DNA of 64,000 bases from an uncultured cyanobacterium (GCA_963749915.1 CAVVOP010000022.1:448001-512000); one strand, 5' to 3'. Shown: positions 9,351 through 64,000, counted from the first letter of the stretch. The notes: generated by a model from the letters alone, not told the origin. Numbers and translations: made by a program.

Positions 9351-11435
9351 CTATAAATTAAAAATTTTAGTTAAGGAAAAAGGAATAAAATTATTATTAA
9401 AATTTGTAGGACGAAATATATAGGCCTCTTGTCCTTCTAAAATTAAATTTTCATCAGAGTAAGCTACTGATAAGCCATCTTCTGAGGTTGATTGATGCTT
9501 GAAAAGATCAAAAACACTGGGAAGAGTGTCAAGATACTCCATAAAAGGAGGCATATTTTTTTCTAAACTATATAAATTGGCACTAGCAGATCTAACACTA
9601 GCCTTAAGATTTGCGTCTATGTAGATTAAATGATTTTTAGGTAAATCGATAACGGCGATATACTTAGTAAAGTTTTTTCCTTTGAGGGGGAAAGACAATT
9701 GACAGCGACGGGGTTCAAATAAATTTCCTTTTTCCGGATATTCTCCCCATTGCAAGGCAGCATAAACTTCTTTGGCTTCATCAAAAGATTGACGGGAGTA
9801 ACAAAGAATATTCCATAAAGCATATCTCACATTAGCCTGTAACAGTGATGGTAAGTATAAATCAATTAATTGACAAGCATCACCGTCCATGGTTTTACTA
9901 TTGGTAGGATCACCGGAAAAAATAGCAGCGTTATCTCCAAAATAAGGATAATCCCAGCAACAACTACCTAAAGGATTCCATAATTCATTAAAAAAGTTCC
10001 AACCGTTATCATACCAAATATTGTATTGTGTTTCTCCCGATCGCCAATAACTAGCTGTACGAATAAAGGTTATATTTTCGGGAATGGTGAATACTGTACC
10101 TCTTCCGTAAGAGGTGAGATCACTATCATTAGTCTGTAGTTTGATTAAATCTGTTTCAGAATCTAGGTTCACTTTTGGTACAATTGGACTGATTTTATTT
10201 TTGATTTCCTTGCCAATGACGGTTAATAGTCTTTCCTGAATGGGCGTTTCTACGGGTTGAGACTCTTGTATTTTTTGAATCTGCATTTTTGTCCAATTGC
10301 CTTTCGGGGGAAAAATTCGATAAAGACGATAATTGATAGTTTCTAAATATTTATATAGTTTGAGCAGTTGGATTGTTTTTAGTTGTGGAATTACCTGTTC
10401 AAAGGCGATCGCTCCTTCTAATCCAAATAAGCTGATGCAATTATGCAGTCGGCGATAAAATTCCCCCGGACGAGTGCTTAATAGTTGTAACACTTTGGGA
10501 TCTCTTTTTTCTAATAAAAATTCTAAACGACCGTTAAAAGTATTGAAAGTTTTTTTATTGTGATATAAGTGATCGTAGGCTACTACTACCTTAGAAAATT
10601 CTGAGCCATAATCTCCTGGATGCAACCCATACATTAATTTTTTCCAAATATTTTTTCTTCTCCAAATATCTTCCTCAAGGTTTGAGTTTTGATTGAGCAA
10701 AGTTAATAAAAATTTTCTTTCGTATCTTTTAAAACTGCGAAATTTACAAGGATTTTTTAAGCTAATATCCCCTTGTGATAAAGCGATCGCTAATCGTAAA
10801 ACATCAGTAGCCGAATTAACTTTAATCTGTTCGTTTTTTCCCAAATAATATTTTAATATTTTGATTAAATTTTCCTTAAAAATTATTTTATCAGTATCAA
10901 CTTTGTTCTCAAATTGACCTAATAAATAAACAATGTCGTGCCATTGTCCCTCAGTCCAACGATTAGGTAAATATAATAACTTTTCAAAAATTTGTAGTAA
11001 AGAATTGCTTTTACTAGGTTGTAAAACTCGAAGATTTAACTTTTCTTGAAGTTGGGGACGTTCTTTTTCTTTTTCAGTAAAAGAACCATGGGGAAGTCCC
11101 CAATACATTAAAATTTGTTTGAGCCAATATTGAGCCTCAGACATACTCAAAACTTCTTGGGGAAAATTTTTATAGACCACATAATCAGTCATTTTTTTAT
11201 CATCCCCCGTTATTTTTTTGAGGATTGGCTGAATTTTTTGCCACCAATCAGCAATATCTTTTTCGGAGGCATTATTTAACTGATGATAGGCAATTTCTGA
11301 CAGGGCGTAACCATAATAAGTTAGATTATTGATGATAGTTGCGATGGTGGTAATATTTCCTATAACGCCTGTGCAATGAGGGGGTAAAGGAATCAAATTG
11401 TGACGAATTAAAATTTCCGAGGCGTAGGAAGACAT
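9351..11435 (-). CDS. Large protein with C-terminal TerD-like region (resembles MXAN_6230/SCO0854-type proteins without the RING)
   Basis: YKNFPQEV, TDVLRLA..LS.GD.SL, RPGEF.RRL, RGT.F.I, FSGD.T...G.ACQLIDL motifs. Confidence 0.5.
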   Translation of the reverse strand: MSSYASEILIRHNLIPLPPHCTGVIGNITTIATIINNLTYYGYALSEIAYHQLNNASEKDIADWWQKIQPILKKITGDDKKMTDYVVYKNFPQEVLSMSEAQYWLKQILMYWGLPHGSFTEKEKERPQLQEKLNLRVLQPSKSNSLLQIFEKLLYLPNRWTEGQWHDIVYLLGQFENKVDTDKIIFKENLIKILKYYLGKNEQIKVNSATDVLRLAIALSQGDISLKNPCKFRSFKRYERKFLLTLLNQNSNLEEDIWRRKNIWKKLMYGLHPGDYGSEFSKVVVAYDHLYHNKKTFNTFNGRLEFLLEKRDPKVLQLLSTRPGEFYRRLHNCISLFGLEGAIAFEQVIPQLKTIQLLKLYKYLETINYRLYRIFPPKGNWTKMQIQKIQESQPVETPIQERLLTVIGKEIKNKISPIVPKVNLDSETDLIKLQTNDSDLTSYGRGTVFTIPENITFIRTASYWRSGETQYNIWYDNGWNFFNELWNPLGSCCWDYPYFGDNAAIFSGDPTNSKTMDGDACQLIDLYLPSLLQANVRYALWNILCYSRQSFDEAKEVYAALQWGEYPEKGNLFEPRRCQLSFPLKGKNFTKYIAVIDLPKNHLIYIDANLKASVRSASANLYSLEKNMPPFMEYLDTLPSVFDLFKHQSTSEDGLSVAYSDENLILEGQEAYIFRPTNFNNNFIPFSLTKIFNL

Positions 11436-11534
11436 AATATATCTATCACTTAAACTTACTATTCCTATAGTTGAACAAATGAACCAACATTGTCGCTAAT
11501 AATTGTTAATAATTGTTAATAATGAGCAAATTTA

Positions 11535-12054
11535 TCACTGACAAGGCACATCCAAAACACCCAAGCTTAAAATTAAATCATCACTATCAATCCCCAAAGC
11601 TAAATCTCGATAGTAGTATAATCCACGTTTCGGGGCAACAATTATGTTCTGAGGACGTTCAACTACCCCATTTTTCCCATAAAAAACTATTTGAATATAA
11701 CATTTTCCGTTTCCTCCGTGATAAATATCATAATCGTACATTGAATCGAAAGGGATTTTGTCTTGAGGAGAAATAGGGAAACAGCCTATTCCGCTGGGTT
11801 TGATGTTGCCGGACACCTCCACAGGAAAAACCCCTCTTTCAAGATAAGAACTTTCTATTTCGTTTGCGATACATTTCATGTCAACAATAGCTTGAGTATA
11901 ATGGGCTTTGTCGATTTGTGCCATTAAATTGGGATAGGCGATGGCTAGAAAAATATTAAGAATGACAATAACAATTAAAAGCTCAAGTAAAGTTAATCCA
12001 GCTTGATGATGTTGGAAGTTTGCAGAAAAAAAAAACTTTATGCTGCAAATACAT
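11535..12054 (-). pseudogene. Type IV prepilin-like gene frameshifted in a T10 tract
   Basis: Upstream in frame with ORF 11535-11924 lies QAG|LTLLELLIVIVILNIFLAIAYPNL. ATG at 12054, with RBS AAGGAGGAG, is in frame only if the A10 at 12026-12035 were A9 or A12. Confidence 0.8.
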
Positions 12055-51245: not shown

Positions 51246-52151
51246 GGCTCTTCTACAGTGAGTATGACAAATTAAGTACAAAAACAAAGTCACAAAATGG
51301 TAAAATTTTACACAAGTGAAGCGATCAGTTCTGATAAATAGATGCTACCTCGCTTTTAAACTATTAGGAAAATTAATCAAATTTTTAAATAAAACAATAA
51401 TTTTTATCTTATGCCTTCTAATTCCTCTCTTCATCTTATCACTAAACTTATTAATTTTGAGGGAGTCAAAGCTACTGATTACCATTTTATTACTGACAAC
51501 GAAATTTTAATTACATTATCGAATCAAACATCAGAGTCAACTTGCCCTTATTGTCATACTATTACTAATAAAATACACCAAGATCATTATTATCGAATTA
51601 GAGATATACCTTTGAGTGGTTATGATGTGTTTTTAAATATTAACCGCCGTCAATTTCGATGTATTCATTGCCAGAAAATTTTTAGTGAAGAGTTAAATTT
51701 TGTCAAAAAAAGAAGGACTTATACAACTAGATTGGCAGAGAAAGTAGTTAAGGAAGTGCTAGAAAGTGATATTTTAAACACTGCCAAAAGAAATGGAATG
51801 ACTCCCAGAGAAATAGAAACCTTATCAAAAGAAAAATCAGAAGATTTATTAGAAGAAAAACCAAAGGATTTAAAAAGATTAGGAATTGATGAAATAACTC
51901 AGTTAAAAGGAGGAAAGAATTACGCCGCAGTGTTAGTGGATTTAGACAAAAAAAAACCGATAGCAATTTTAGAGAACAGAAGTAAAGAGACAATCGGAAA
52001 ATACTTGATAAGTCTGGGTTGTGAGGTGTTAAATCAAATTGAAGAAGTCAGCATAGATTTGTGGATAGGATATAAAACTTTGGCATTGGAGTTAATGCCA
52101 AATGCCAATATAGTGGCAGATAGATTCCATGTAATGAAACAAATAAATGAG
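51246..52151 (+). mobile_element. ISL3-family IS, copy 1 (3'-truncated); transposase fragment 51411-52154
   Basis: Left IR GGCTCTTCTACAGT. Transposase with zf-ISL3 CPYC/CIHC, GIDE and ADRFHV motifs. Near-identical to copy 2 until it stops at QINE. Confidence 0.92.
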
Positions 52152-52439
52152 TAGTCAAAGTATAGACGATTTTAGATATCGCTAATACAATCCTAGATGA
52201 AATGGTTGAATGTGTTAAAATTTTTCTGAATTTATCTATCTTAAATCAATTCTGATAATAACTGGAAGCTAGGTATAATAAGTGTTCTCCCCTTTTTTCT
52301 AATTATTCAAACCAATGAACACACAAAATGAACTAAAAATTGACTGTTTCTTTCCTCAATTTTCTCTTGCTTTTAGATTAATTATTGCAAGCTTCATCGG
52401 CATTTGGCACTAGCTTTACTTTTATTCAAAATGGTTTTC

Positions 52440-53505
52440 CTAACTGGAACAATATTGGTTTTTTTTCAGGTAATGTAATAATATTGATGGTTTTTCAACT
52501 TTTGACACCAAAGATAACAATTCTGAAGATGAATTAACGGCTTGTGATCTTTTGAATTATATATTCAGCGAGACAATTCATGACCTTAATTTCTTAATCA
52601 GTTAGTTTTTCCCATAATTCTAATAATTTATTATTCATCTTTTTTTGAATGGTGTTATTAATTTAATATTTTTCAGCCATAATTGTTGAAATAAATCTTG
52701 AGAAATGTAGCCCTTATCTCCAAATAATCGACCCCATAAATCCTTCGTTAAATAAGGTACTGTTTTTCTATCGTCCACATTACCTTTTGTTATTTGAAAT
52801 GCCAATATTTCTCCCAATTCATTAATAATTAAATGTAATTTAAAGCCGAAGTACCAGTCTATAGAGCTTTTTCCCCAATGAGCCAAGTTATCAAAAACTT
52901 TATTTCTTTTGGCTCTTTTATTGTGGCAAATAGGAATACCCATTGTATCGATAAAAGAAATTCCTGTACATGATCCTTTACGAGTATTGAGATAAAAAAT
53001 TAAAGGAATTAAAGCGGAAGATTTAAGTTGAACAAAACGATTATAACTGACCAAATTAGGAAAATCTTGAAAATGATAAACCTGAATATGATTTTGATAA
53101 TAGTGTTTAAAGTTTCGATAACTAGAATGATGAAAATAAATAATAATAGTCATAATTTCACTCAAGGATAATCGACTATTTTTGATTCTTTTTTTCTGTT
53201 TAGATGATAAAATTTGACGATTAAAAGATGGTTCAAAAATTAAACAGAAATCATCTACATCATAGAAAAGTGTTTCTAATTCCATAAAAATTAATTTTTA
53301 AAAAATAACATATTGATTATGAAATTAATTTAAAAAAAAAAGGAGATATTAGCAATGAAATTTAATAAATATTCAGAAAAATTAACTTATTAATCTGGGT
53401 AGAACTTTTAATACATTAAGAATTGTAAAATAGCGAAAAATAGTATAAACCCAAAACTCATATAAGTTAAGAGTTTGAGACTATTTTCTTATATCGAACT
53501 CAGGT
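52440..53505 (-). mobile_element. IS982-family IS remnant; transposase 52635-53285 with decayed 3' end
   Basis: VDDFC, SEIMTI, SYNRFV, FIDT, WYFGFKLH, FGDKGYIS motifs; end sequence ACCTGAGTTCGATATAAG starting at 53505; the lower boundary is approximate. Confidence 0.85.
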
Positions 53506-53583
53506 ATATTAGGAACAGCAACGGCATTATGCTTCGGGACTATGTTGAAACGTAAAAATACTTTGAATAAAGAAGCTAAATAA
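53506..53583 (+). pseudogene. Orphan 3' end of a PEP-CTERM-type sorting-signal gene
   Basis: ILGTATALCFGTMLKRKNTLNKEAK* begins exactly at the IS982 end. Confidence 0.65.
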
Positions 53584-53621
53584 TATCGATACAAGTACAA
53601 AAATGATAAATAAACTTGAAT

Positions 53622-53647
53622 GACGGCTACTACAGTCGTCTTTTTTT
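53622..53647 (+). terminator. Rho-independent terminator
   Basis: gacggct...agtcgtc stem followed by T7. Confidence 0.7.
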
Positions 53648-53749
53648 ATGTCTCAAAACCGATCGCATTTGAGACTAATATGAATGCAATTAGGTATTGC
53701 TTATGGGGTTAATTGCTTTTAAAGTGAATTATTATTCATTAATATTGGA

Positions 53750-54175
53750 TTAATATTTATCTAGAAACATAAGTTTAAAGTCAGTTGCATTAACAATATC
53801 AATACCCTCAAAAGAATTTAAAACTAGCAAGTCTAAATCACCAGTAATAATAAAATTAACTGGAATAGATAAAGCAGCTTCTAAAACTATTTTATCCTTT
53901 AAATCTCTTAATTCAGAAATCTCTAATATTGATTTTGGTTGGCATAATTTAGTAATTAACTTGACACCATTAACTAACTCTTGAGTTGAATAATTTAGTT
54001 GTTTTAATCTCTTTTGTAACTTTTCTTTAGCTAAGGTTTCTTCTAGCTCTTTTAATAAAGAATTAGAAATATAAATAGTTGCTGAATTATTCTCTGCTAA
54101 CTGAATTATCTGACGAGGAATACCACCCCATAATAGACCTGAAATCCAGATATTCGTATCAAGTAATAGTTTCAC
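53750..54175 (-). CDS. PIN-family toxin
   Basis: LLDTNIWISGLL, ELEETL, RD.KD..VLEAA, IITGD.DLL. Confidence 0.9.
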   Translation of the reverse strand: MKLLLDTNIWISGLLWGGIPRQIIQLAENNSATIYISNSLLKELEETLAKEKLQKRLKQLNYSTQELVNGVKLITKLCQPKSILEISELRDLKDKIVLEAALSIPVNFIITGDLDLLVLNSFEGIDIVNATDFKLMFLDKY

Positions 54176-54390
54176 TACCCAGCTCTATCTTCCCGAACTT
54201 CTTTCACCAAAGAGACAATTTCTTCTGTGGACAATTGCTCCTTATCTTCTCCTAAATCATCTATTTTTTGCCATAACTGAGTCAAAGTATTTTCTCTTTT
54301 GGTAAACTGCTTAATTAACTGATATACTTCTTCTAATTTTTCTTCGGGAATATTATCAATTTCAGCTTTAATTAAATCTGCTATTGTCAT
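54175..54390 (-). CDS. Putative antitoxin
   Basis: 71 aa; overlaps the toxin start by 1 bp; EIDNIPEEKLEEVYQLI and EEIVSLVKEVR. Confidence 0.75.
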   Translation of the reverse strand: MTIADLIKAEIDNIPEEKLEEVYQLIKQFTKRENTLTQLWQKIDDLGEDKEQLSTEEIVSLVKEVREDRAG

Positions 54391-54422
54391 TATATATTTC
54401 CTTTTGCTGATCTAATAATAAT

Positions 54423-55761
54423 GGCTCTTCTACAGTGAGTATGACAAATTAAGTACAAAAACAAAGTCACAAAATGGTAAAATTTTACACAAGTGAAGCG
54501 ATCAGTTCTGATAAATAGATGCTACCTCGCTTTTAAACTATTAGGAAAATTAATCAAATTTTTAAATAAAACAATAATTTTTATCTTATGCCTTCTAATT
54601 CCTCTCTTCATCTTATCACTAAACTTATTAATTTTGAGGGAGTCAAAGCTACTGATTACCATTTTATTACTGACAACGAAATTTTAATTATATTATCGAA
54701 TCAAACATCAGAGTCAACTTGCCCTTATTGTCATACTATTACTAAAAAAATACACCAAGATCATTATTATCGAATTAGAGATATACCTTTGAGTGGTTAT
54801 GATGTGTTTTTAAATATTAACCGCCGTCAATTTCGATGTATTCATTGCCAGAAAATTTTTAGTGAAGAGTTAAATTTTGTCAAAAAAAGAAGGACTTATA
54901 CAACTAGATTGGCAGAGAAAGTAGTTAAGGAAGTGCTAGAAGGTGATATTTTAAACACTGCCAAAAGAAATGGAATAACTCCCAGAGAAATAGAAACCTT
55001 ATTAAAAGAAAAATCAGAGGATTTATTAGAAGAAAAACCAAAGGATTTAAAAAGATTAGGAATTGATGAAATAACTCAGTTAAAAGGAGGAAAGAATTAC
55101 GCCGCAGTGTTAGTGGATTTAGACAAAAAAAACCGATAGCAATTTTAGAAAACAGAAGTAAAGAGACAATCAGAAAATACCTGATAAGTTTAGGTTCTGA
55201 GGTATTAAATCAAATTGAAGAAGTCAGTATAGATTTGTGGATAGGATATAAAACTTTGGCATTGGAGTTAATGCCAAATGCAAACGTAGTAGCAGATAGA
55301 TTTCATGTAATGAAACAAATAAATGAAGAATTAGATCTGATGCGAAAAAAGCAAAAAAGGGCAGCTTCAGAAATCAAAAATGAAGTAGAAAAAGAGAAAT
55401 TAGAAGAAGTCAAAAAAGTAGCACCAGAGTTAATAATAATGTACGCAGAAAAAGAGGCATGGAGGGATATATTTGAAAGTGAAATAACAGCGGAAGAAGC
55501 ATTAGATAAAATAGCGGAATGGATGAAATCAGCACAGAAATATTTTCCCAAAAGTTGTCAAACAATAAGAAGATGGCTAGATGAAATATTAGGCTATTTT
55601 GACAACAGAACAAGTCAAGGTATAGTAGAAGGAATTAATCAAAAAATTAAGCTGATTAAGAGAAGAGCTTATGGCATGACAAATTTTGATAATTTTAGGC
55701 GAAGAATCTTATTAAATTGGTCTGTATCTTAAAAATGTATCATAGCTACTGTAGAAGAACC
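54423..55761 (+). mobile_element. ISL3-family IS, copy 2 (both IRs); transposase 54588-55732 frameshifted at an A8 run near 55125-55132
   Basis: Left IR GGCTCTTCTACAGT and right IR (reverse complement GGTTCTTCTACAGT). C-terminal TSQGIVEGINQKIKLIKRRAYG. Copy 1 has A9 at the frameshift site. Confidence 0.95.
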
Positions 55762-55891: not shown

Positions 55892-57703
55892 TTACTTATA
55901 ATATTCAGCTTGGGTAGCAAATAGGTGGGCATAAGTACCCTGAAGTTTCATAAGTTCCTCATGAGTTCCACTCTCACTAATTGTGCCATTTTCCAGAACA
56001 AAAATACGATCTGTTAGCTTTACCGTAGAAAGACGGTGACTGATAATCAAAGTAGTTCGATTTTTGGCTAAATGACGAAATTTAGTTAGTACTTCCGCTT
56101 CTGCTTGGGGATCTAATGCACTGGTGGGTTCATCAAGAATAAGGATAGGACTTTTACGCAGATAAGCCCTAGCGATGGCAATTTTTTGCCATTCTCCGAT
56201 ACTTAATTCTTCTCCTCTTTCAAATTCGTGACCAAGAATAGTATCGTAACCATGAGGAAAACTGGCGATCATTTCTTCAACACCTGCGAAAGAGGCCGCT
56301 TGGCAAATATCCTGGGATTTATGTAGTAATCTCACATCCCCGAAGCCAATATTCTCTGTCACCGTAAGATTATAATGAGCATAATCTTGAAAAACAGCAC
56401 TAATTTGTTCCCGTAAAATTGAAGTATCGAATTGTCGTAGATCGATGCCGTCTATGGTAATATTACCATCGGTCGGGTCATAAAGACGGCATAACAGCTT
56501 AACGAGGGAACTTTTCCCCGCTCCATTTTTTCCCACAAGGGCAACGGTTTCCCCTGGCTTAATGGTAAAGTTAAGATCTTCCAACACGGGGCGAGAACTT
56601 TGAGCATAACAAAATTGAACGTTATGGAATTGAATTCCCACTTTCAACGGCTCAACAAAAGCACAAGGATGGCTAGGTTCTTCTACTGTCGGTTTTAAGT
56701 CGAGGAACTCATAGAAACTCGAAAGGAATAGACTGTTTTCATAAAGACTGGCTAAACTAGACAATGCTTCCCTCAATAAACTTTGACCCCTTTGAAATGC
56801 CTGATAATACATAACTAGGCTACCAATACTAATCTTCCCTTGAACCGTTTGGTGAGCAATAAAGCCAATAGAACCGAATACAGCCAGATTTCCACTCCAC
56901 TGGGTGATCACTTCTGCGAAAGAACGTTGAGTTGCCAGAGTTATTTTTTCTTTGCGAATAGAAGTGCGTAGTTGATTATATTGTTTGCGAAAACGAGAGC
57001 CTAAATTAAACAGGCGAATTTCTTTGGCATGAGTTTCGTGGGTAAGTAGCCAGTTAAAGTAATCTGCTAATCTTTGGTTTGGTGTCCATTCTCGCCAACG
57101 ACGGTAAAGTTTATCAGCATATTTAATTCGTATGATTAAACTAGGTACAACTGCAAGAAATAAGATAGTAACGATTCCCCAATGCAAAGATAAAAGTAAC
57201 AAGGAGATCGCCACTAGAGAAATTCCGCTTTGTCCTAGTTGGATCAACTGATTTAAAATTATTCTTGGACGATAAGGAGCTTCAGATTGGGCTCGATGTA
57301 AAGCGTCATAGAAAGAGTTATTTTCATAATACCCTAAGTCAACTTCGGTGGATTTAGCGTGGAGTAAATTTTGTACATCATCCGTTACAATTTCCGAGTG
57401 AGCCTCATTGACCACTGCCGACAAGGAACGAGACAAGTCAATAATCAGGGCAATAACAGCCGCAAAAACAATTAGCCCAATTATTTGCTTCATGTCACTG
57501 GTTTTAGTCTCTAAGCTCATAGTGACAGTGTCTATGATTTGTTTTGTTAGATACAGCGAGATAAGGGGAAGGAAACCTTGAACAAAGAGCAAACCAAAAG
57601 AAGCAATAGTTAGAGCGGAAGAGCTGTGCCAGGCAATTTCTACTGCTCGCCATAAAAAGAGTAAACGTTTGATTCTTTGCTTATTACGATAGTTGAAGGA
57701 CAA
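55892..57703 (-). CDS. ABC exporter (fused TMD-NBD) of the lasso peptide cluster
   Basis: TM region; GKNGAGKS, LSIGEWQKIAIARA, ILDEPT, ISHRLS; divergent from the lasso operon. Confidence 0.9.
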   Translation of the reverse strand: MSFNYRNKQRIKRLLFLWRAVEIAWHSSSALTIASFGLLFVQGFLPLISLYLTKQIIDTVTMSLETKTSDMKQIIGLIVFAAVIALIIDLSRSLSAVVNEAHSEIVTDDVQNLLHAKSTEVDLGYYENNSFYDALHRAQSEAPYRPRIILNQLIQLGQSGISLVAISLLLLSLHWGIVTILFLAVVPSLIIRIKYADKLYRRWREWTPNQRLADYFNWLLTHETHAKEIRLFNLGSRFRKQYNQLRTSIRKEKITLATQRSFAEVITQWSGNLAVFGSIGFIAHQTVQGKISIGSLVMYYQAFQRGQSLLREALSSLASLYENSLFLSSFYEFLDLKPTVEEPSHPCAFVEPLKVGIQFHNVQFCYAQSSRPVLEDLNFTIKPGETVALVGKNGAGKSSLVKLLCRLYDPTDGNITIDGIDLRQFDTSILREQISAVFQDYAHYNLTVTENIGFGDVRLLHKSQDICQAASFAGVEEMIASFPHGYDTILGHEFERGEELSIGEWQKIAIARAYLRKSPILILDEPTSALDPQAEAEVLTKFRHLAKNRTTLIISHRLSTVKLTDRIFVLENGTISESGTHEELMKLQGTYAHLFATQAEYYK

Positions 57704-57770: not shown

Positions 57771-58970
57771 ATGATGATGATGACTATAACTTCTAATCAC
57801 CCGCAAAAGTCAGAAATAGAGTTTTTATTGTGTTGTACCCAACCGGAGCTGACCACAACTCAAAAAGATCATTTGCTCCATCTTGGAAAACAAGAACTTG
57901 ACTGGTCATACTTAATTTCCTTTGCCTCTGAACATGGGCTTATGCCCTTACTTTATCGTCAACTTAAAGTCACATGCCCTGATATTGTCCCCGAAAAGAT
58001 ACTGATTCAGTTACGCCAATATTCTCTGGCTAAAACAGCAAGAAACATGGCTATGACAGCAGAATTGATCAGGATACTCAATCTTTGTAAAGATCAACAA
58101 ATCCCCATGCTCTCTTTTAAAGGACCTCTTCTTGCTCAACTTGCCTATGGAGATCTTAGTTTTCGGGAATTTGGGGATTTGGACTTACTAATTACTGAAT
58201 CTGAGTTACCTAAAGTTCATAAATTACTTTTAGCTCAGGGCTATCAACCCCTGTACAATATCAAAGATTCACAGATCGAAGTTTATGGAAAATTGCAACA
58301 CGAATTAGCCTACTCCCATGAAGCTAAAGGTATAATTATCGACTTACACTGGTCTATTGTGCACAAATATTTTTCTTTTTCTCCCTCATCTAAGTTTATT
58401 TGGTCAAAACTTGATCAGATCAACTTAAATAATCACAAAGTCGAAACTTTATCACTGGAAATCTTAATTGTTTTTTTATGTGCTCACTCAGCTAAACATG
58501 GTTGGTCAGATCTTTCCTTAATTTGTGAACTAGCCCATTTATTAAAACGCCATCCGCAAATTGATTGGGAAATAATCGAATCTTATATGGGAAATCTAGG
58601 AGGTCGAACTATGGTATTGCTGAGTCTGAGTTTAACTCAAACAATTTATGGAACAAATTTGCCCAAAAATATTTGTCAACAAATAATAAAATCTGAACCC
58701 ATTTTGACTAAACTTTCTGCCCAAGTTGAAGAACAAATCTTTTCCCCCAGAAATAAGCTATTAGATATTTTTTCCCCGAATTTTTTGTATTCTCAAAGTA
58801 TGGAATCTTGGCAAGACCGTTTTCTGTATTGGCTCAATGTTTCTACAACTCCTACTTCTATTGAGATGGAGGCAATTTCCTTACCAACAATTTTATTTCC
58901 CCTTTATTATCCGATCAGGATATTTAGACTAAGCTACAAGCACTTAAAAAAGTTTTTCATCAAAAATTAA
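57771..58970 (+). CDS. Nucleotidyltransferase family protein (NTP_transf_5-like), lasso cluster
   Basis: FKGPLLA..AY...SFREFGDLDLLI, IDLHW, HSAKHGW. Confidence 0.85.
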   Translation: MMMMTITSNHPQKSEIEFLLCCTQPELTTTQKDHLLHLGKQELDWSYLISFASEHGLMPLLYRQLKVTCPDIVPEKILIQLRQYSLAKTARNMAMTAELIRILNLCKDQQIPMLSFKGPLLAQLAYGDLSFREFGDLDLLITESELPKVHKLLLAQGYQPLYNIKDSQIEVYGKLQHELAYSHEAKGIIIDLHWSIVHKYFSFSPSSKFIWSKLDQINLNNHKVETLSLEILIVFLCAHSAKHGWSDLSLICELAHLLKRHPQIDWEIIESYMGNLGGRTMVLLSLSLTQTIYGTNLPKNICQQIIKSEPILTKLSAQVEEQIFSPRNKLLDIFSPNFLYSQSMESWQDRFLYWLNVSTTPTSIEMEAISLPTILFPLYYPIRIFRLSYKHLKKFFIKN

Positions 58971-59032: not shown

Positions 59033-59305
59033 ATGAAGGTAATGGTACCTGAGTCCGTTTTGGTGCAAAATTTAGATAATGAGTCAGTATTGCTGAATAT
59101 TGATACAGAGCAGTATTTTGGCTTGGATGATGTAGGCTCTCAGATGTGGGATCTTCTCAAAACCAGTGAATCAGTAGAAAATGCTACAGAAAAACTGCTA
59201 GAAATATACGATGCAGAAAAAGAACAATTGTACAAAGATTTACTGGAATTCATCGAAAAATTATCAGAACATGGTTTATTACAAATTATTAAAACGCGAG
59301 ATTAA
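59033..59305 (+). CDS. PqqD-family RiPP recognition element (lasso B1)
   Basis: ESVLLNIDTEQYFGLDDVGSQMWDLL...DLLEFIEKLSEHGLL. Confidence 0.92.
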   Translation: MKVMVPESVLVQNLDNESVLLNIDTEQYFGLDDVGSQMWDLLKTSESVENATEKLLEIYDAEKEQLYKDLLEFIEKLSEHGLLQIIKTRD

Positions 59306-59729
59306 TTCATTATTACAGTTATCTTCTCATGGGCGAAAATTACTGTTACAAGCTCTGATTTTATTCCCGTTAGTTCATCTTTCTCTAACATTAAAGGGAT
59401 TAAAACAAACTCAATCCTTGCTTGCTAATTTTGTTTCTAAAGCCCAAATTACTCCCCAAAAAAACACTGAGGTGGTTTGCTTTACGGAAAAAATAGTGGC
59501 CATCGCATCTCGCTACAGTCGTCCTTGGGGAAGCTGTTTGAGACGATCTCTTGTCTTATGGTTTTTGTTGCGCCGTGAAGGAGTTGAGAGTCAGTTACGC
59601 ATTGGGGTAAAACGAGAAAAAGACCAATTTTCCGCTCATGCTTGGGTAGAGTGGGACGGAGTTGTTTTAAATGACCAGTCCAACGTGGGAGATGAATTTG
59701 CTATGTTTGAAAATTTACGAGTTCTTTAA
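59271..59729 (+). CDS. Lasso peptide leader peptidase B2 (transglutaminase-like)
   Basis: SCLRRSL (Cys), LRIGV, AHAWVE (His), VLND (Asp); ATG 59271 preferred over 59211. Confidence 0.92.
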   Translation: MVYYKLLKREINSLLQLSSHGRKLLLQALILFPLVHLSLTLKGLKQTQSLLANFVSKAQITPQKNTEVVCFTEKIVAIASRYSRPWGSCLRRSLVLWFLLRREGVESQLRIGVKREKDQFSAHAWVEWDGVVLNDQSNVGDEFAMFENLRVL

Positions 59730-59741
59730 TGACGATATCCT

Positions 59742-60719
59742 ATGGCTATATATAAATATAAATATGTTGATGTAATTTTTATAAGCAATATTTTTTTACC
59801 GAGCCTTTCTGTCATTAACGGGGATACTTTTGACTATATTTTCCAACTGGGATGCTCATCTTCTCGTAATAGAATATTTGGTGGTGACTGGATACACCAT
59901 TGGACTTTTGCCAATGAGGAAGTATGGCTTTCCTTAGGGAAAGAAGAAAATGAATACTATCTTAAATTTCCTGATATAGCTGACTTCTACTTCTCCCCCG
60001 AAAACAAGACCATTGATTGCTATGAGCAACCCGATATTTCCATCGAAACCATTAGGCACTTATTACTCAATGTAGTTATGCCTCTTGTTCTCACTTACAG
60101 AGGGAAATATTTTCTTCATGTAGGTGCCATAGATCTAAAAGAGATTGGAGTCGCTTTTCTGGGGAAATCAGGTTTTGGCAAATCAACTTTAACCACTAGC
60201 TTTGGGCAAAAAGGGTTTCCCATAATTACAGACGATTGTGTAGTTGTGGAGCAAGATCAAGATAAATTTACCCTTATGCCTGCACCCCCACAGTTGCGAT
60301 TATGGGATGAGTCCATCGATTTCTTATTTGCACAAAAAAAACCCCATTTATCTCGAGGAGTTAACTATACAAACAAAGCACACTTATATGAAGCGGATGC
60401 TATGGGGATTGTGTTTTCCAGTGAAATTGTTCCACTCGGGTGTATATACGTTCTCTGTTCCCCTGAATCGGTGGAAGAATTGGATACCACCATTGACATT
60501 AAGCGATTATCCTCAAGAGAAGCGATGTTTCACTTACTTGAGTCCGTATTTCGCTTCGACATTAGTGACAAATCAAGAGTGGCACAAGAGTTTGATTTCC
60601 TTAGTAAAATTGCACGCTCTGTACCTTGTTTCCATCTTCGTTATCCCAGAAATTTTAATCTTTTGTCCGAGGTACAATCAGCAGTCGTCGAGAACACTCT
60701 AAGGGAGATAAAAGTATGA
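59742..60719 (+). CDS. HPr-kinase-like kinase of the lasso cluster
   Basis: LHVGAI (His), Walker A GKSGFGKST, ITDD di-aspartate. Confidence 0.85.
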   Translation: MAIYKYKYVDVIFISNIFLPSLSVINGDTFDYIFQLGCSSSRNRIFGGDWIHHWTFANEEVWLSLGKEENEYYLKFPDIADFYFSPENKTIDCYEQPDISIETIRHLLLNVVMPLVLTYRGKYFLHVGAIDLKEIGVAFLGKSGFGKSTLTTSFGQKGFPIITDDCVVVEQDQDKFTLMPAPPQLRLWDESIDFLFAQKKPHLSRGVNYTNKAHLYEADAMGIVFSSEIVPLGCIYVLCSPESVEELDTTIDIKRLSSREAMFHLLESVFRFDISDKSRVAQEFDFLSKIARSVPCFHLRYPRNFNLLSEVQSAVVENTLREIKV

Positions 60720-62635
60720 GTGGAATTGCAGGAGTTGTCCATTGGCATAGAGAACCAGTTAAATCCCATGAACTAGAACAAATGATAGTAAAACTACATC
60801 ATCGTGGACCCCATGGAAGAGGTATTTGGCTTGAGGGTTTTTGCGGTTTAGGTAATACACTGCTGTGGAATACTCCCGAATCCTTACAGGAAAAACTACC
60901 ATCGACCTCTGCTGAGGGAAATTTAGTCATTACCGCCGATGTTCGCCTAGATAACCGAGAGGAACTAATTGAGGCTCTAGGAATCACTAACAGCCATTCC
61001 TGGGAGGTTACTGACAGCGATCTAATTCTCGGTGCTTATCAAAAGTGGGGGCAAACTTGTCCGCAAAAATTACTCGGTGACTTTGCTTTTGCCATTTGGG
61101 ACTCCCGACAAGAGCAACTATTTTGTGCTAGGGATCATTTTGGCTGTAAACCTTTAATCTATTATCACTCAAATGGTATTTTCGCCTTTGCCTCAGAAGT
61201 TAAGGCTTTATTTTGTCTGGGAGACGTTCCTCGGCGTATTAATGAAGGGAGAATAGCCGATTTTTTGGTAATGACCCTAGAACGTATCGATAAAACTTCT
61301 ACTTTTTATGAAAATATTTTTAAATTGCCTCCTGCCCATACTTTGACCATCAATAGAGAGAAATGTTCTTTGGAGTGTTATTGGAATCTTGATAGCAGTA
61401 AGGAAATTCACTACTCATCAGATCAAGATTATGAAGACGCTTTTCTCGAAATCTTTACCGAGGCTGTAAGCTGTCGCCTCCGTAGTCATTCCTTAGTGGG
61501 TTCTATGCTCAGTGGGGGCATGGACTCCTCTTCGATTGTCTGTATTGCCCGTGAGCTTCTTTTGCAAAAAGGAGAATTACTCCATACCTTTTCTGGGGTT
61601 TCTGATGATAGACAAACCTGTTGTGAAAGTCCATTTATTGAGGCAATTCTTGGTTTGGGGGGGTTGAATGCGGAAGTAATTGGAGCAGATGAAGTGAAGT
61701 CTTTTTTACCAGATGTTCATAATTTATTCACACACACCGATGACTTATTTGACTTTCTCCTACATGGCATCACCTTAGTAACTTACAGTGCCGCCCACCG
61801 AAAAGGACTTCATGTGATGATGACTGGTTTAGACGGTGATTTAGTGGTTTCACAAAGGGAAATAATTTTGAGGAAGTTTTTACGCACAGGAAAGTTCAGT
61901 CGTGCTTATGAAGAAGCCCAAGCAATGACGAAGTTAAAAGGTTTATGGGGAGATAACTCCCCGACAAAATTACTCTGGAATGGTGGTTTAAAACCCCTCC
62001 TACCCCAGATTATCAAACAAAGTTGGCGGCTACTAAGCTCTAAAAAGAAAAACCAAGCAGATATTCAAAGCAGTCTTATTTCCGAGGAGTTTGCCCGACG
62101 GGTAAATTTAGAAGAACGCTTAGAAACTCTTTCCATAAATCTGGGAAAATATAAAGTGTTAAAAACAGCTAGAGAAGTTCATCAAAACTCCTTGGATGTT
62201 CCTAATCTCACCGTCGCCCTTGATAGATACGAAAGAGTTGCCGCATTCTATTCCATTGAACCGCGTCATCCCCTTCTCGATAAAAGATTGGTCGAGTTCT
62301 GTCTATCCCTTCCTGGTGAGCAAAAAGTTCGCCAAGGATGGACAAAATCCATTCTCAGAAGGGCAATGGTCGGGAAAGTGCCGGATTCCGTACGCTGGCG
62401 ACACGATTGTGATAATGTACAGCCTGCTTTTACAAAAAGTATGTTACGTCATCAACAAGAATATCTCCCAGATTGTATTGCTGAATGTGCTACTGAGTTA
62501 AAGGATTATGTTAATGTAAAAGAGCTTGAAAAACAGTACTTTCAGTGTTACGCCACAGAAACTGTTAACGAAGACGCAGGATGGAAAGTTTGGCCTACCG
62601 TCATCTTGGCTACGTGGCTTCGTGACCACAGGTAA
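60716..62635 (+). CDS. Lasso cyclase (asparagine synthetase-like C protein)
   Basis: MSGIAG (Ser in place of the glutaminase Cys), GDFAFAIWD, ARDHFG, LSGGMDSS, TGLDGD, RHPLLDKRLVEF; overlaps the kinase stop. Confidence 0.92.
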   Translation: MSGIAGVVHWHREPVKSHELEQMIVKLHHRGPHGRGIWLEGFCGLGNTLLWNTPESLQEKLPSTSAEGNLVITADVRLDNREELIEALGITNSHSWEVTDSDLILGAYQKWGQTCPQKLLGDFAFAIWDSRQEQLFCARDHFGCKPLIYYHSNGIFAFASEVKALFCLGDVPRRINEGRIADFLVMTLERIDKTSTFYENIFKLPPAHTLTINREKCSLECYWNLDSSKEIHYSSDQDYEDAFLEIFTEAVSCRLRSHSLVGSMLSGGMDSSSIVCIARELLLQKGELLHTFSGVSDDRQTCCESPFIEAILGLGGLNAEVIGADEVKSFLPDVHNLFTHTDDLFDFLLHGITLVTYSAAHRKGLHVMMTGLDGDLVVSQREIILRKFLRTGKFSRAYEEAQAMTKLKGLWGDNSPTKLLWNGGLKPLLPQIIKQSWRLLSSKKKNQADIQSSLISEEFARRVNLEERLETLSINLGKYKVLKTAREVHQNSLDVPNLTVALDRYERVAAFYSIEPRHPLLDKRLVEFCLSLPGEQKVRQGWTKSILRRAMVGKVPDSVRWRHDCDNVQPAFTKSMLRHQQEYLPDCIAECATELKDYVNVKELEKQYFQCYATETVNEDAGWKVWPTVILATWLRDHR

Positions 62636-62652: not shown

Positions 62653-62681
62653 TTGACATATACATAATTAAATAATATGAT
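62653..62681 (+). promoter_or_regulatory. Near-consensus sigma70-type promoter for the lasso precursor
   Basis: TTGACA (62653-62658), 17 nt, TATGAT (62676-62681); ends 36 nt before the ATG. Confidence 0.75.
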
Positions 62682-62717: not shown

Positions 62718-62849
62718 ATGAAAAACCAAAATCTCAAAAAATATCACCCTCCTAAACTGGAAATTTATGGTAATGTTTCTAAACTGACTCAGGGTGGTAG
62801 TTCAGGTACCCCGGAAACAGCCATGAATCCCATAGGGGCACGACCATAA
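62718..62849 (+). CDS. Lasso peptide precursor (43 aa; not in the ORF track)
   Basis: MKNQNLKKYHPPKLEIYGNVSKLTQ-GGSSGTPETAMNPIGARP*: YxxPxL motif, Gly, Thr at -2, core Gly1 with Glu8. Confidence 0.92.
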   Translation: MKNQNLKKYHPPKLEIYGNVSKLTQGGSSGTPETAMNPIGARP

Positions 62850-63067: not shown

Positions 63068-64000
63068 ATGTATAGTATTTTTGAATATGGAGGAATGATC
63101 AAAGATTCCGTACGGATGTCTGCTTACATTGAGACATTGCGTAGGACAGTAACACCAGAATCTATCGTTTTAGAGATTGGTACAGGCACAGGCATTTTTG
63201 CTCTTATTGCTTGTCAGTTAGGAGCGAGGAAGGTTTATGCCATTGAACCTAATAATGCGGCCATTCGGGTTGCTCAAGATATTGCCCGCGTCAATGGTTA
63301 TGGGGATAAAATTGAGTTCATTCAGAATCTATCAACTGAAATAAACCTGCCTGAAAAAGTTAGCATAATACTCTCTGATCTAAGAGGTACTCTGCCACTA
63401 TTTCAAAATCATATTCCCGTTATTGTTGATGCCAGAAAAAGATTTTTAAGTCCGAATGGTGTACTTATTCCCCAACAAGATACTCTGTGGGCATGTGTGG
63501 TAGAGGCACCAGAATTTTATCGAGATAAATATAGTTCTCCTTGGGATGATAAACCCTATGGTTTCGAGATGAAATCAGCACGGCGATTCACTACCAATAC
63601 TTGGCATAGGTATAAAGTAAAACCGGAAGAACTTTTTGTCGAATCTCAGTGCTGGTCAACTCTGGACTATAACACCAGAGAAGATCCCGATGTCAAAGGG
63701 GAACTAAATTGGACCGTAGCACGCACTGGAGTAGCCCATGGTTTAAGCGTTTGGTTTGATGCCACCTTAGCTGAAGGGATTGGTTTTTCCAATGCCCCCG
63801 ATCAAATCGGAAGCGTTCATGGTGAAGCTTTTTTCCCTTTTTCCTTTCCCGTAAATCTTTCCGAGGGGGATACTGTTTCTGTGACTTTACGAGCTGACTT
63901 AGTGGGGAATGATTATATCTGGCGTTGGCATACCCAGATATTTGCTCAAGACAATCCTGCTCAAGTTAAAACCAACTTTAAACAATCTACCTTTTTTGGT
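63068..64000 (+). CDS. SAM-dependent methyltransferase of PRMT (protein arginine methyltransferase) fold, 3'-truncated by window; not in the ORF track
   Basis: 311 open codons: MIKDSVRMSAY, VLEIGTGTG, VYAIE, LPEKVSIILSD, ARKRFLSPNGVLIP, HGLSVWFD, FSNAP. Confidence 0.85.
   Translation, partial: MYSIFEYGGMIKDSVRMSAYIETLRRTVTPESIVLEIGTGTGIFALIACQLGARKVYAIEPNNAAIRVAQDIARVNGYGDKIEFIQNLSTEINLPEKVSIILSDLRGTLPLFQNHIPVIVDARKRFLSPNGVLIPQQDTLWACVVEAPEFYRDKYSSPWDDKPYGFEMKSARRFTTNTWHRYKVKPEELFVESQCWSTLDYNTREDPDVKGELNWTVARTGVAHGLSVWFDATLAEGIGFSNAPDQIGSVHGEAFFPFSFPVNLSEGDTVSVTLRADLVGNDYIWRWHTQIFAQDNPAQVKTNFKQSTFFG

Follow-up and report, generated by a model that had tools for sequence, protein, structure and literature searches.

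A methyltransferase gene at the end of a lasso-peptide cluster in an uncultured cyanobacterium is a member of a large bacterial family, so far uncharacterised, with a link to lasso clusters, and its product (MTase) is predicted to have the full PRMT fold, consisting of a class I SAM-binding domain, a beta-barrel and an arm. This family, which contains the MTase and its near homologues and is here called the D-x-R family, keeps, as judged by alignment, a single active-site acid (Asp for the first of the two PRMT glutamates), and has neither the second Glu nor the pocket His. Core peptides encoded beside these enzymes are enriched in Met. We propose that the MTase S-methylates Met in its own peptide and that N-methylation of Lys takes its place in Met-free cores, a reading based on co-occurrence to which we give slightly less than an even chance. 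Met11 appears to be the best acceptor candidate in the lasso peptide studied here, and Arg17 a weaker one.

The window, meaning the whole 64,000-nucleotide stretch of DNA that was analysed, carries genes for a nucleotidyltransferase, B1, B2, a kinase, a cyclase, the precursor and the MTase, together with a divergent ABC exporter (Table 1). The cluster is single-copy in the genome, and its precursor is the only match to the lasso leader pattern there. The predicted core GGSSGTPETAMNPIGARP (62793-62846), with a presumed Gly1-Glu8 ring, has 18 residues, among which are one Met (11), one Arg (17, as the preliminary description had stated) and no Lys, as well as Ser3 and Asn12. This composition makes the locus unusually clean for separating hypotheses on the methyl acceptor. 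The true start of B2 is probably further inside the called frame. Ser3 is the likely target of the kinase, by analogy with BsfK, which phosphorylates Ser3 (PMC10368454). The bsf cluster of Bradymonas and the psm/pade clusters resemble the present one in their A, B1, B2, C, D, K and N gene set, and bsf shares the core Ser3, but the bsf genes listed in the available part of that report include no methyltransferase (PMC10368454).

The MTase gene starts with an ATG 218 nucleotides past the precursor, and its frame is open to the end of the window, as had been noticed from the window alone. The genome supplies the remainder (G000:C22:511068-512222), giving 384 amino acids and a stop codon of its own 222 nucleotides beyond the window. 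The gene is intact and real; its last 73 residues, a helical tail, lie outside the window, and the genes 3' to it are unrelated. Consensus matching detected no terminator-like site between precursor and MTase, and the two may therefore be co-transcribed.

Table 1. Positions of the features discussed. Unprefixed coordinates are those of the window; L numbers denote the loci compared.
Feature	Position	Strand	Basis or remark
ABC exporter, divergent from cluster	55892..57703	-	profile search
Nucleotidyltransferase-family tailoring protein	57771..58970	+	PF14907, E 3e-61
RRE / PqqD protein B1	59033..59305	+	PF05402, E 4e-18
Leader peptidase B2	59211..59729	+	NF033537, 84.9 bits, cut-off 33
HPr-kinase-like peptide kinase	59742..60719	+	profile matches
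Lasso cyclase (C)	60716..62635	+	NF033535, 688.6 bits, cut-off 525
Sigma-70-like site, just upstream of precursor	62653..62681	+	11 of 12 consensus bases
Lasso precursor, 43 aa	62718..62849	+	NF033521, above cut-off
Met11 codon, putative methyl acceptor	62823..62825	+	sequence and family statistics
Arg17 codon, rival acceptor candidate	62841..62843	+	sequence
PRMT-fold SAM-dependent methyltransferase (MTase), codons 1-311 of 384	63068..64000	+	Rossmann domain, beta-barrel
Double-E-loop equivalent, S103-Q113	63374..63406	+	alignment to Naegleria PRMT1
THW-loop equivalent, S249-G252	63812..63823	+	alignment to Naegleria PRMT1
Sister double-E enzyme	L010:4193-5419
Sister double-E enzyme	L032:11200-12426
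Sister double-E enzyme	L081:7056-8327
Sister double-E enzyme	L134:664-1890
Sister double-E enzyme	L209:11311-12549
Sister double-E enzyme	L210:11557-12732
Sister double-E enzyme	L211:11324-12499
Deeper cyanobacterial relative	L113:8876-9997	-	precursor 11396-11560 (-)

Neither the cyclase nor the MTase was found in the six genomes of the same family among 401 cyanobacterial-phylum genomes searched. Transposase-like fragments lie within 51411-55732, just upstream of the cluster, and include a near-identical pair whose starts are at 51411 and 54588. Together, the absence from relatives and the nearby fragments suggest a recent gain. The GC content of the cluster is 0.387, that of the contig 0.369, and no relative was found in viral contigs or plasmids.

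The PRMT-type motifs that the preliminary description had recognized are borne out by sequence and structure comparisons. A phmmer search of solved structures gives PRMT1, 7, 2, 3, 8, CARM1, 6 and 5 as the best matches, with E values of 3e-25 or weaker (71 distinct sequences); every one of the best 60 listed is a PRMT, and Pfam PRMT_C scores 36.9 bits (cut-off 27). An AlphaFold2 model of the MTase (71 sequences; mean pLDDT 90.9) is matched by Foldseek to PRMT2, 6 and 1 with TM 0.65-0.72 by query, which was the structural comparison that had been suggested. VIA-align superimposes the model on PRMT2 with Z 34.3 and an rmsd of 2.3 Å over 305 residues, and the first non-PRMT in its list has Z 13. 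As in eukaryotic PRMT1/2/3/6, CARM1 and PRMT7, with which the MTase shares 22-25% identity, there are a Rossmann domain, barrel and arm, the SAM motifs, the helix residues D13, R16 and Y20, and the WFD strand. Unlike these enzymes, the MTase is bacterial, lies within a lasso cluster, starts too late for the N-terminal YFxxY helix and carries an extra C-terminal helical tail. The name under which databases list its homologues, PrmA/L11 Lys methyltransferase, was rejected, as the corresponding models score 30-34 bits against cut-offs of 183-269 and match the Rossmann part only.

Homologues of the MTase number 2100 at E<=0.001, a count that may include the double-E sister enzymes described below. 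We examined the loci of the best 80 of at least 387 confirmed relatives, taken from a scan of species genomes, with flanks of up to 10 kb. The proposed genomic link to lasso clusters was confirmed: a cyclase is present in 57 of the 80 loci (58 matches less L048, whose match is GlmS-type), B1 in 54 and the nucleotidyltransferase in 46, and a kinase, mostly adjacent, in 60. B2 occurs in at least 29, and because B2 counts are lower bounds they were not used. Thirteen loci have neither cyclase, kinase, B1 nor nucleotidyltransferase. The loci come from Acidobacteriota, Cyanobacteriota, Chloroflexota, Gemmatimonadota, Myxococcota, Pseudomonadota and other phyla. The literature searched, which omits most subscription journals, yielded no published report on the family.

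To ask which residue accompanies the enzyme, precursors were called with our own leader pattern, which missed some, and each core was taken to begin at the second residue past the conserved Thr; the residue counts exclude loci in which no precursor was called. Controls were cyclase loci chosen regardless of MTase, among which 26 are enzyme-less (at least 2 kb on each side), 41 are too short to tell and 4 have only a double-E enzyme. Loci were grouped into lineages at cyclase identity >=60%, and the L081 core and a second L182 core were added by hand. In a scan of all 20 residues, Met gives the strongest contrast, being present in 29 of 42 enzyme-bearing but 1 of 22 enzyme-less lineages (Fisher 6e-7, a post hoc test), and it makes up 6.4% of core residues with the enzyme versus 0.2% without. 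When only cyclase-picked loci are counted, Met is found in 9/11 with the enzyme versus 9/71, whereas Lys (9/11 versus 44/71) and Arg (2/11 versus 31/71) show no difference. The Met contrast persists within each of the two GC classes and among short cores. Six linked loci are Lys-free (that of the window, L014, L078, L081, L182 and L214); all six have Met and two have Arg, compared with Met in 2 of the 24 Lys-free loci in which no enzyme was seen.

A fresh check of 402 Myxococcota and Gemmatimonadota genomes produced eight new matches, six of them D-x-R enzymes, all in cyclase clusters. These six loci were fetched after the Met idea had arisen; four have Met and the other two have Lys (binomial 0.001 at a 10% background), and one of the two Lys-only loci falls in an already sampled lineage. 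Independent pairs on the cyclase tree also favour Met. In a first run, Met goes with the enzyme in 4.4 and against it in 0.0 of 5 pairs (median p 0.125); in a second, based on a quick tree with 17 more loci, including some called enzyme-less by a looser rule, and with five traits tried, the figures are 6.2 and 0.1 of 7 (median p 0.031, range 0.016-0.22). We regard this support as suggestive, not decisive.

Of 74 family-linked loci, 37 have Met, 68 Lys, 24 Arg and 66 Asn, and each of the 74 has Met or Lys. That every locus should have at least one of these two has a p of 0.01 when loci are counted and of 0.09 when lineages are, as calculated before the six new loci. Because the called cores of the other 37 loci (13 of 42 lineages) contain no Met, either one family must take two different atoms or something else underlies the Met signal. 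The position of Met is not fixed, with 31 instances in the first nine residues and 44 after. Where linked cores differ from one another, Met is exchanged for Lys more often than for any other residue (7 of 34 Met mismatches, in pairs that are not independent), and Lys most often for Met. Lys and Met codons differ by one base, which eases exchange without a common function. The Lys half of the proposal is weak under the tree test, in which a Lys tail gives 1.9 pairs for and 1.6 against out of 7.

The raw counts for Lys are nevertheless strong, and the family might be Lys-specific, acting on a K-T tail, in which case the MTase would lack a proper substrate in its Lys-free peptide or act on another protein. 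A K-T/S tail is found in 49/67 linked versus 1/26 enzyme-less loci (23/42 versus 1/22 lineages), and enzyme-less loci in the K-T cyclase clade (L105, L197, L202, L205, L207, L215 and L220) lose the Lys and mostly retain the Thr or Ser. Moreover, in a quick tree the MTase groups with cyanobacterial Lys-tail members, and its cyclase belongs to another clade. This explanation is nonetheless improbable in our judgement, given that the MTase gene is intact with all family residues present, that the six Lys-free loci retain the enzyme and have Met, and that the Lys tail fails the independent-pairs test. As a single explanation the Lys tail was rejected, being impossible for the core in the window.

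Asn12 raises another alternative, in which the MTase N-methylates an Asn side chain or a backbone amide. RiPP enzymes with such activities are known, namely PoyE, PbtM1 and the borosin enzymes (PMC11285071), and Asn is common in linked cores. It is equally common without the enzyme, however (37/42 versus 19/22 lineages), and a link to PoyE, PbtM1 or borosin enzymes in sequence or fold was not found, so we consider amide methylation very improbable.

Arginine deserves more weight, given the PRMT fold. The MTase might still N-methylate guanidinium, here Arg17, using its one acid for monomethylation, and the family might be general methyltransferases of Lys/Arg basic tails. Lys or Arg occupies the last five residues in 61/67 linked versus 11/26 enzyme-less loci, and in the clade of the window's cyclase 7 of 12 loci have Arg in the last three. 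However, nine of these same 12 loci have Met and nine have Lys, and in 50 of the 74 linked loci the called cores contain no Arg at all, four loci having neither Lys nor Arg. Nor does Arg track the enzyme: it occurs anywhere in the core in 20/67 linked versus 9/26 enzyme-less loci, in the last five residues in 12/67 versus 5/26 (12/42 versus 5/22 lineages), and as a tail residue in 1.5 independent pairs for and 1.4 against out of 7. On the locus and lineage counts, an Arg tail was rejected as the family target.

The active site points in the same direction. As described previously, D104 and Q113 align with the two PRMT glutamates (reference Naegleria PRMT1), which is true of this protein, although position 113 is variable in its relatives. 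The altered THW loop was also read correctly as SVHG, but its His does not correspond to the pocket His: S249-V250-H251 align with T-H-W, so that Val250 replaces the pocket His and H251 occupies the Trp position. Hence the two-glutamate double-E loop and the THW His, both features of PRMT membership, are missing. These columns were compared in a near set of 120 sequences, including the MTase, and in 150 wider representatives (about 40-55% identity). Of the latter, 147 have D and 3 have E at position 104, and P110 in the same loop is conserved. Position 113 is Q in 81 of the 120 but, in the wider set, G in 41, Q in 31, E in 26, D in 12 and R in 11; we therefore rejected a conservative E>Q swap, as the second Glu is lost, not swapped. 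Position 250 is V, I or L in 138/150. Position 251 is Y in 116 of the 120 and 135 of the 150, and H in four of the latter.

Activity is lost when the second Glu of PRMT1 is mutated. The double-E pair is critical for chelating guanidine (PMC9469100), and the loss of its second Glu, with that of the pocket His, argues against arginine. Even so, the rare His251 recurs among placed loci only in L229 and L231 (related Gemmatimonadota), and these two loci and that of the window all have a tail Arg. Overall, methylation of Arg17 seems unlikely, and of the two options offered in the preliminary description, an enzyme acting on Arg17 or one repurposed for another acceptor, the second agrees better with the data.

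Two further columns could point to an anionic acceptor instead: position 106 is R in 122/150 and position 181 is K or R in 104/150, whereas the corresponding PRMT1 residues are neutral and acidic, respectively. The family might then consist of O-methyltransferases for an anion common to all members, either the C-terminal carboxylate, as with StspM, or a phosphate added by the frequently adjacent kinase, and no particular side chain would be needed. Lasso peptides with C-terminal methyl esters are known (PMC9266682). Yet this leaves the 30-fold Met enrichment unexplained, the near-invariant Asp104 would repel an anion, and some family members, a Chloroflexota sub-clade, have no kinase or cyclase nearby. 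The R106 side chain also need not face the acceptor, given that M260 at the equivalent position of CARM1 contributes its main-chain oxygen (PMC9469100). We consider O-methylation distinctly unlikely.

For methylation of Met, with Lys as the alternative substrate, the following mechanism can be envisaged. The MTase would bind SAM in the PRMT manner and act on the neighbouring lasso precursor, possibly recruited through a PqqD-like tail or through B1. An unbranched side chain would enter a pocket formed by one Asp with Ile/Val and aromatic walls, in place of Glu and His. Methylation of the Met11 sulfur would yield S-methylmethionine, a sulfonium with a fixed positive charge, and in Met-free relatives a Lys amine would be N-methylated. 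Asp104 may bind the Lys ammonium or steady the forming sulfonium. A thioether has no need for a general base, which would fit the loss of Glu and His. Either reaction would leave a cation at the positions at which related cores exchange Met for Lys.

The closest parallel in product is longipeptin A, a lasso peptide of Longimycelium tulufanense with S-methyl-Met13 in its tail beside Arg14, a modification assigned to LopH and called unprecedented in RiPPs at peptidyl Met, with the enzyme unproven (PMC10028836). Another article describes the assignment as having no knockout support (PMC11285071). The product proposed for the MTase would likewise be a sulfonium in a lasso tail. By its description, however, LopH is set apart by a predicted fold that resembles the SAM-binding domain of human MTHFR (PMC10028836), not a PRMT, and by a P450-type cluster, not a kinase/nucleotidyltransferase-type one. 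An MTHFR-like fold is not among the 50 VIA-align matches listed for the MTase model, which excludes nothing.

In terms of fold, a relevant case is TsaG, a thioamitide His bis-N-methyltransferase (PF06325) with predicted PRMT homology (10.1101/2020.12.17.423248). Compared by its description, TsaG resembles the proposed MTase in being a RiPP tailoring enzyme that gives a non-Arg residue a permanent positive charge, but it acts on His in the thioamitide macrocycle, and His is rare in D-x-R-linked cores (5/42 lineages). A precedent for one enzyme accepting both residues is SETD3, which can methylate Met or Lys in variant peptides (reviewed in PMC8537074). Other SAM-dependent tailoring enzymes of lasso peptides are the O-methyltransferases StspM/LasF, which form C-terminal methyl esters, and the PIMT-type TceM/LihM, associated with aspartimide (PMC9266682, PMC8498205); they belong to other families, and the excerpts available describe no PRMT barrel for them. 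No relevant paper on Arg or Lys methylation of a lasso peptide by a PRMT-type enzyme was found in the literature searched, most subscription journals lying outside it.

If the proposal is correct, the PRMT fold can serve acceptors other than arginine, and losing one Glu and the pocket His would switch it to sulfur and amine acceptors, which bears on how the atom specificity of methyltransferases evolves. The D-x-R family would then supply many candidate sulfonium enzymes with short predicted substrates, and a genetically encoded enzyme that installs a sulfonium could serve as a peptide-labelling tool. A broader and more tentative picture, whose chances we put somewhat below even, is that bacteria rebuilt the PRMT scaffold as a Met S-methyltransferase that also takes Lys, yielding sulfonium lasso peptides in at least eight phyla, beside intact double-E sister enzymes that handle Arg within the same clusters and with one Chloroflexota branch redirected to an Arg/Met-rich cellular protein.

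The sisters in question are PRMT-fold enzymes in seven lasso loci that have both glutamates, or Glu and a nearby acid (SE-x-x-G-N-type loops), and mostly an intact HW. All seven loci have core Arg, and three of the cores (L209-L211) end in Ser-Arg; three of the seven loci carry a D-x-R enzyme as well. Arg methylation of lasso peptides may therefore exist, most likely through this separate group, and the double-E sisters are likely better candidates for it than the MTase, a further point against Arg17. A deeper cyanobacterial relative in L113 has no first Glu but two later ones, and keeps HW; its core is Lys-free with five Met, behind an atypical leader.

The Chloroflexota branch, which is no longer part of lasso clusters, comprises nine homologues that form one clade (SH-aLRT 100, quick tree; L025, L026, L028, L042, L048, L057, L070, L071 and L072). 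All nine lie directly behind a gene (for example L071:6702-7124) for a protein of ~140-170 amino acids with a poly-Arg/Met N-terminus encoded by mixed Arg codons, a hydrophobic segment, an acidic region and a SHOCT domain. This protein is a possible cellular substrate. The arrangement would favour guanidinium methylation, and hence Arg17 here, were the poly-Arg stretch not Met-rich too (3-5 Met per ~35 residues in the seven complete copies for which they were counted), so that it does not discriminate. At the position of K/R181 in lasso-linked members, the Chloroflexota enzymes carry acidic residues.

The C-terminal tail of the MTase is possibly the helical half of an RRE, according to structural models. 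Residues 312-384 contain only helices in both models, with no strand of the three-stranded leader-pairing sheet of RRE/PqqD, and residues ~332-384 form a three-helix bundle that is weakly PqqD-like. In VIA-align, the best PqqD match has Z 5.8 (rmsd 2.0 Å, 49 residues) and lasso B1 has Z 5.5, scores that unrelated helical domains tie. Pfam PqqD matches 16 of 57 family tails at E<=0.05 (best 3e-4); hhalign probabilities for tail versus B1, 14.5% and 5.8% (range 6-15%), barely exceed those of control windows, and an ESM Atlas search with the tail gave weak leads only (PKMT winged helix, 0.78). The tail is absent from 24 of 80 family rows. The linker before it (equivalent to 64040-64087 in window numbering, beyond the window's end; L001:10044 onward) contains a Y-x-P-x-L-x-x-x-G sequence that matched the lasso leader pattern and is semi-conserved in the D-x-R family, by chance or as a leader mimic.

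Several other arrangements were observed in the family. Pyrinomonadaceae-type clusters (L034, L039-L041, L049, L050, L052, L053, L055, L059, L061, L065, L066 and L218) combine a shortened cyclase (~490-560 amino acids), which immediately follows B1, with a methyltransferase that lacks the C-terminal tail; B2 is apparently missing, the cores end in G-P-K-T-G-x, and these clusters may make no lasso. In L044 (5524-11984), where no cyclase occurs within 10 kb, a D-x-R enzyme and a second PRMT-like gene lie back to back, surrounded by three genes with PqqD domains, and another RiPP class is possible. In an Anaerolineae contig (L006:5452-7942), genes for PqqD and a radical SAM/SPASM protein follow a D-x-R enzyme, and no precursor was found there. 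In homologues P0225 and P0246 a long C-terminal extension replaces the tail; that of P0225 is a PhyH-type 2OG-Fe(II) dioxygenase domain, and a separate PhyH gene follows the D-x-R enzyme in L111 (7287-8153). This fusion and this neighbour recall the TsaG/TsaJ pair, which methylates and then hydroxylates. The D-x-R gene of L216 (4757-7166, minus strand) is in two pieces ~1.2 kb apart, perhaps owing to an insertion. Finally, other cyanobacterial genomes (L118-L121, from G388, G212, G380 and G128, among others) contain open frames of 840-2240 amino acids with a PRMT-like domain (E 1e-27 to 1e-33).
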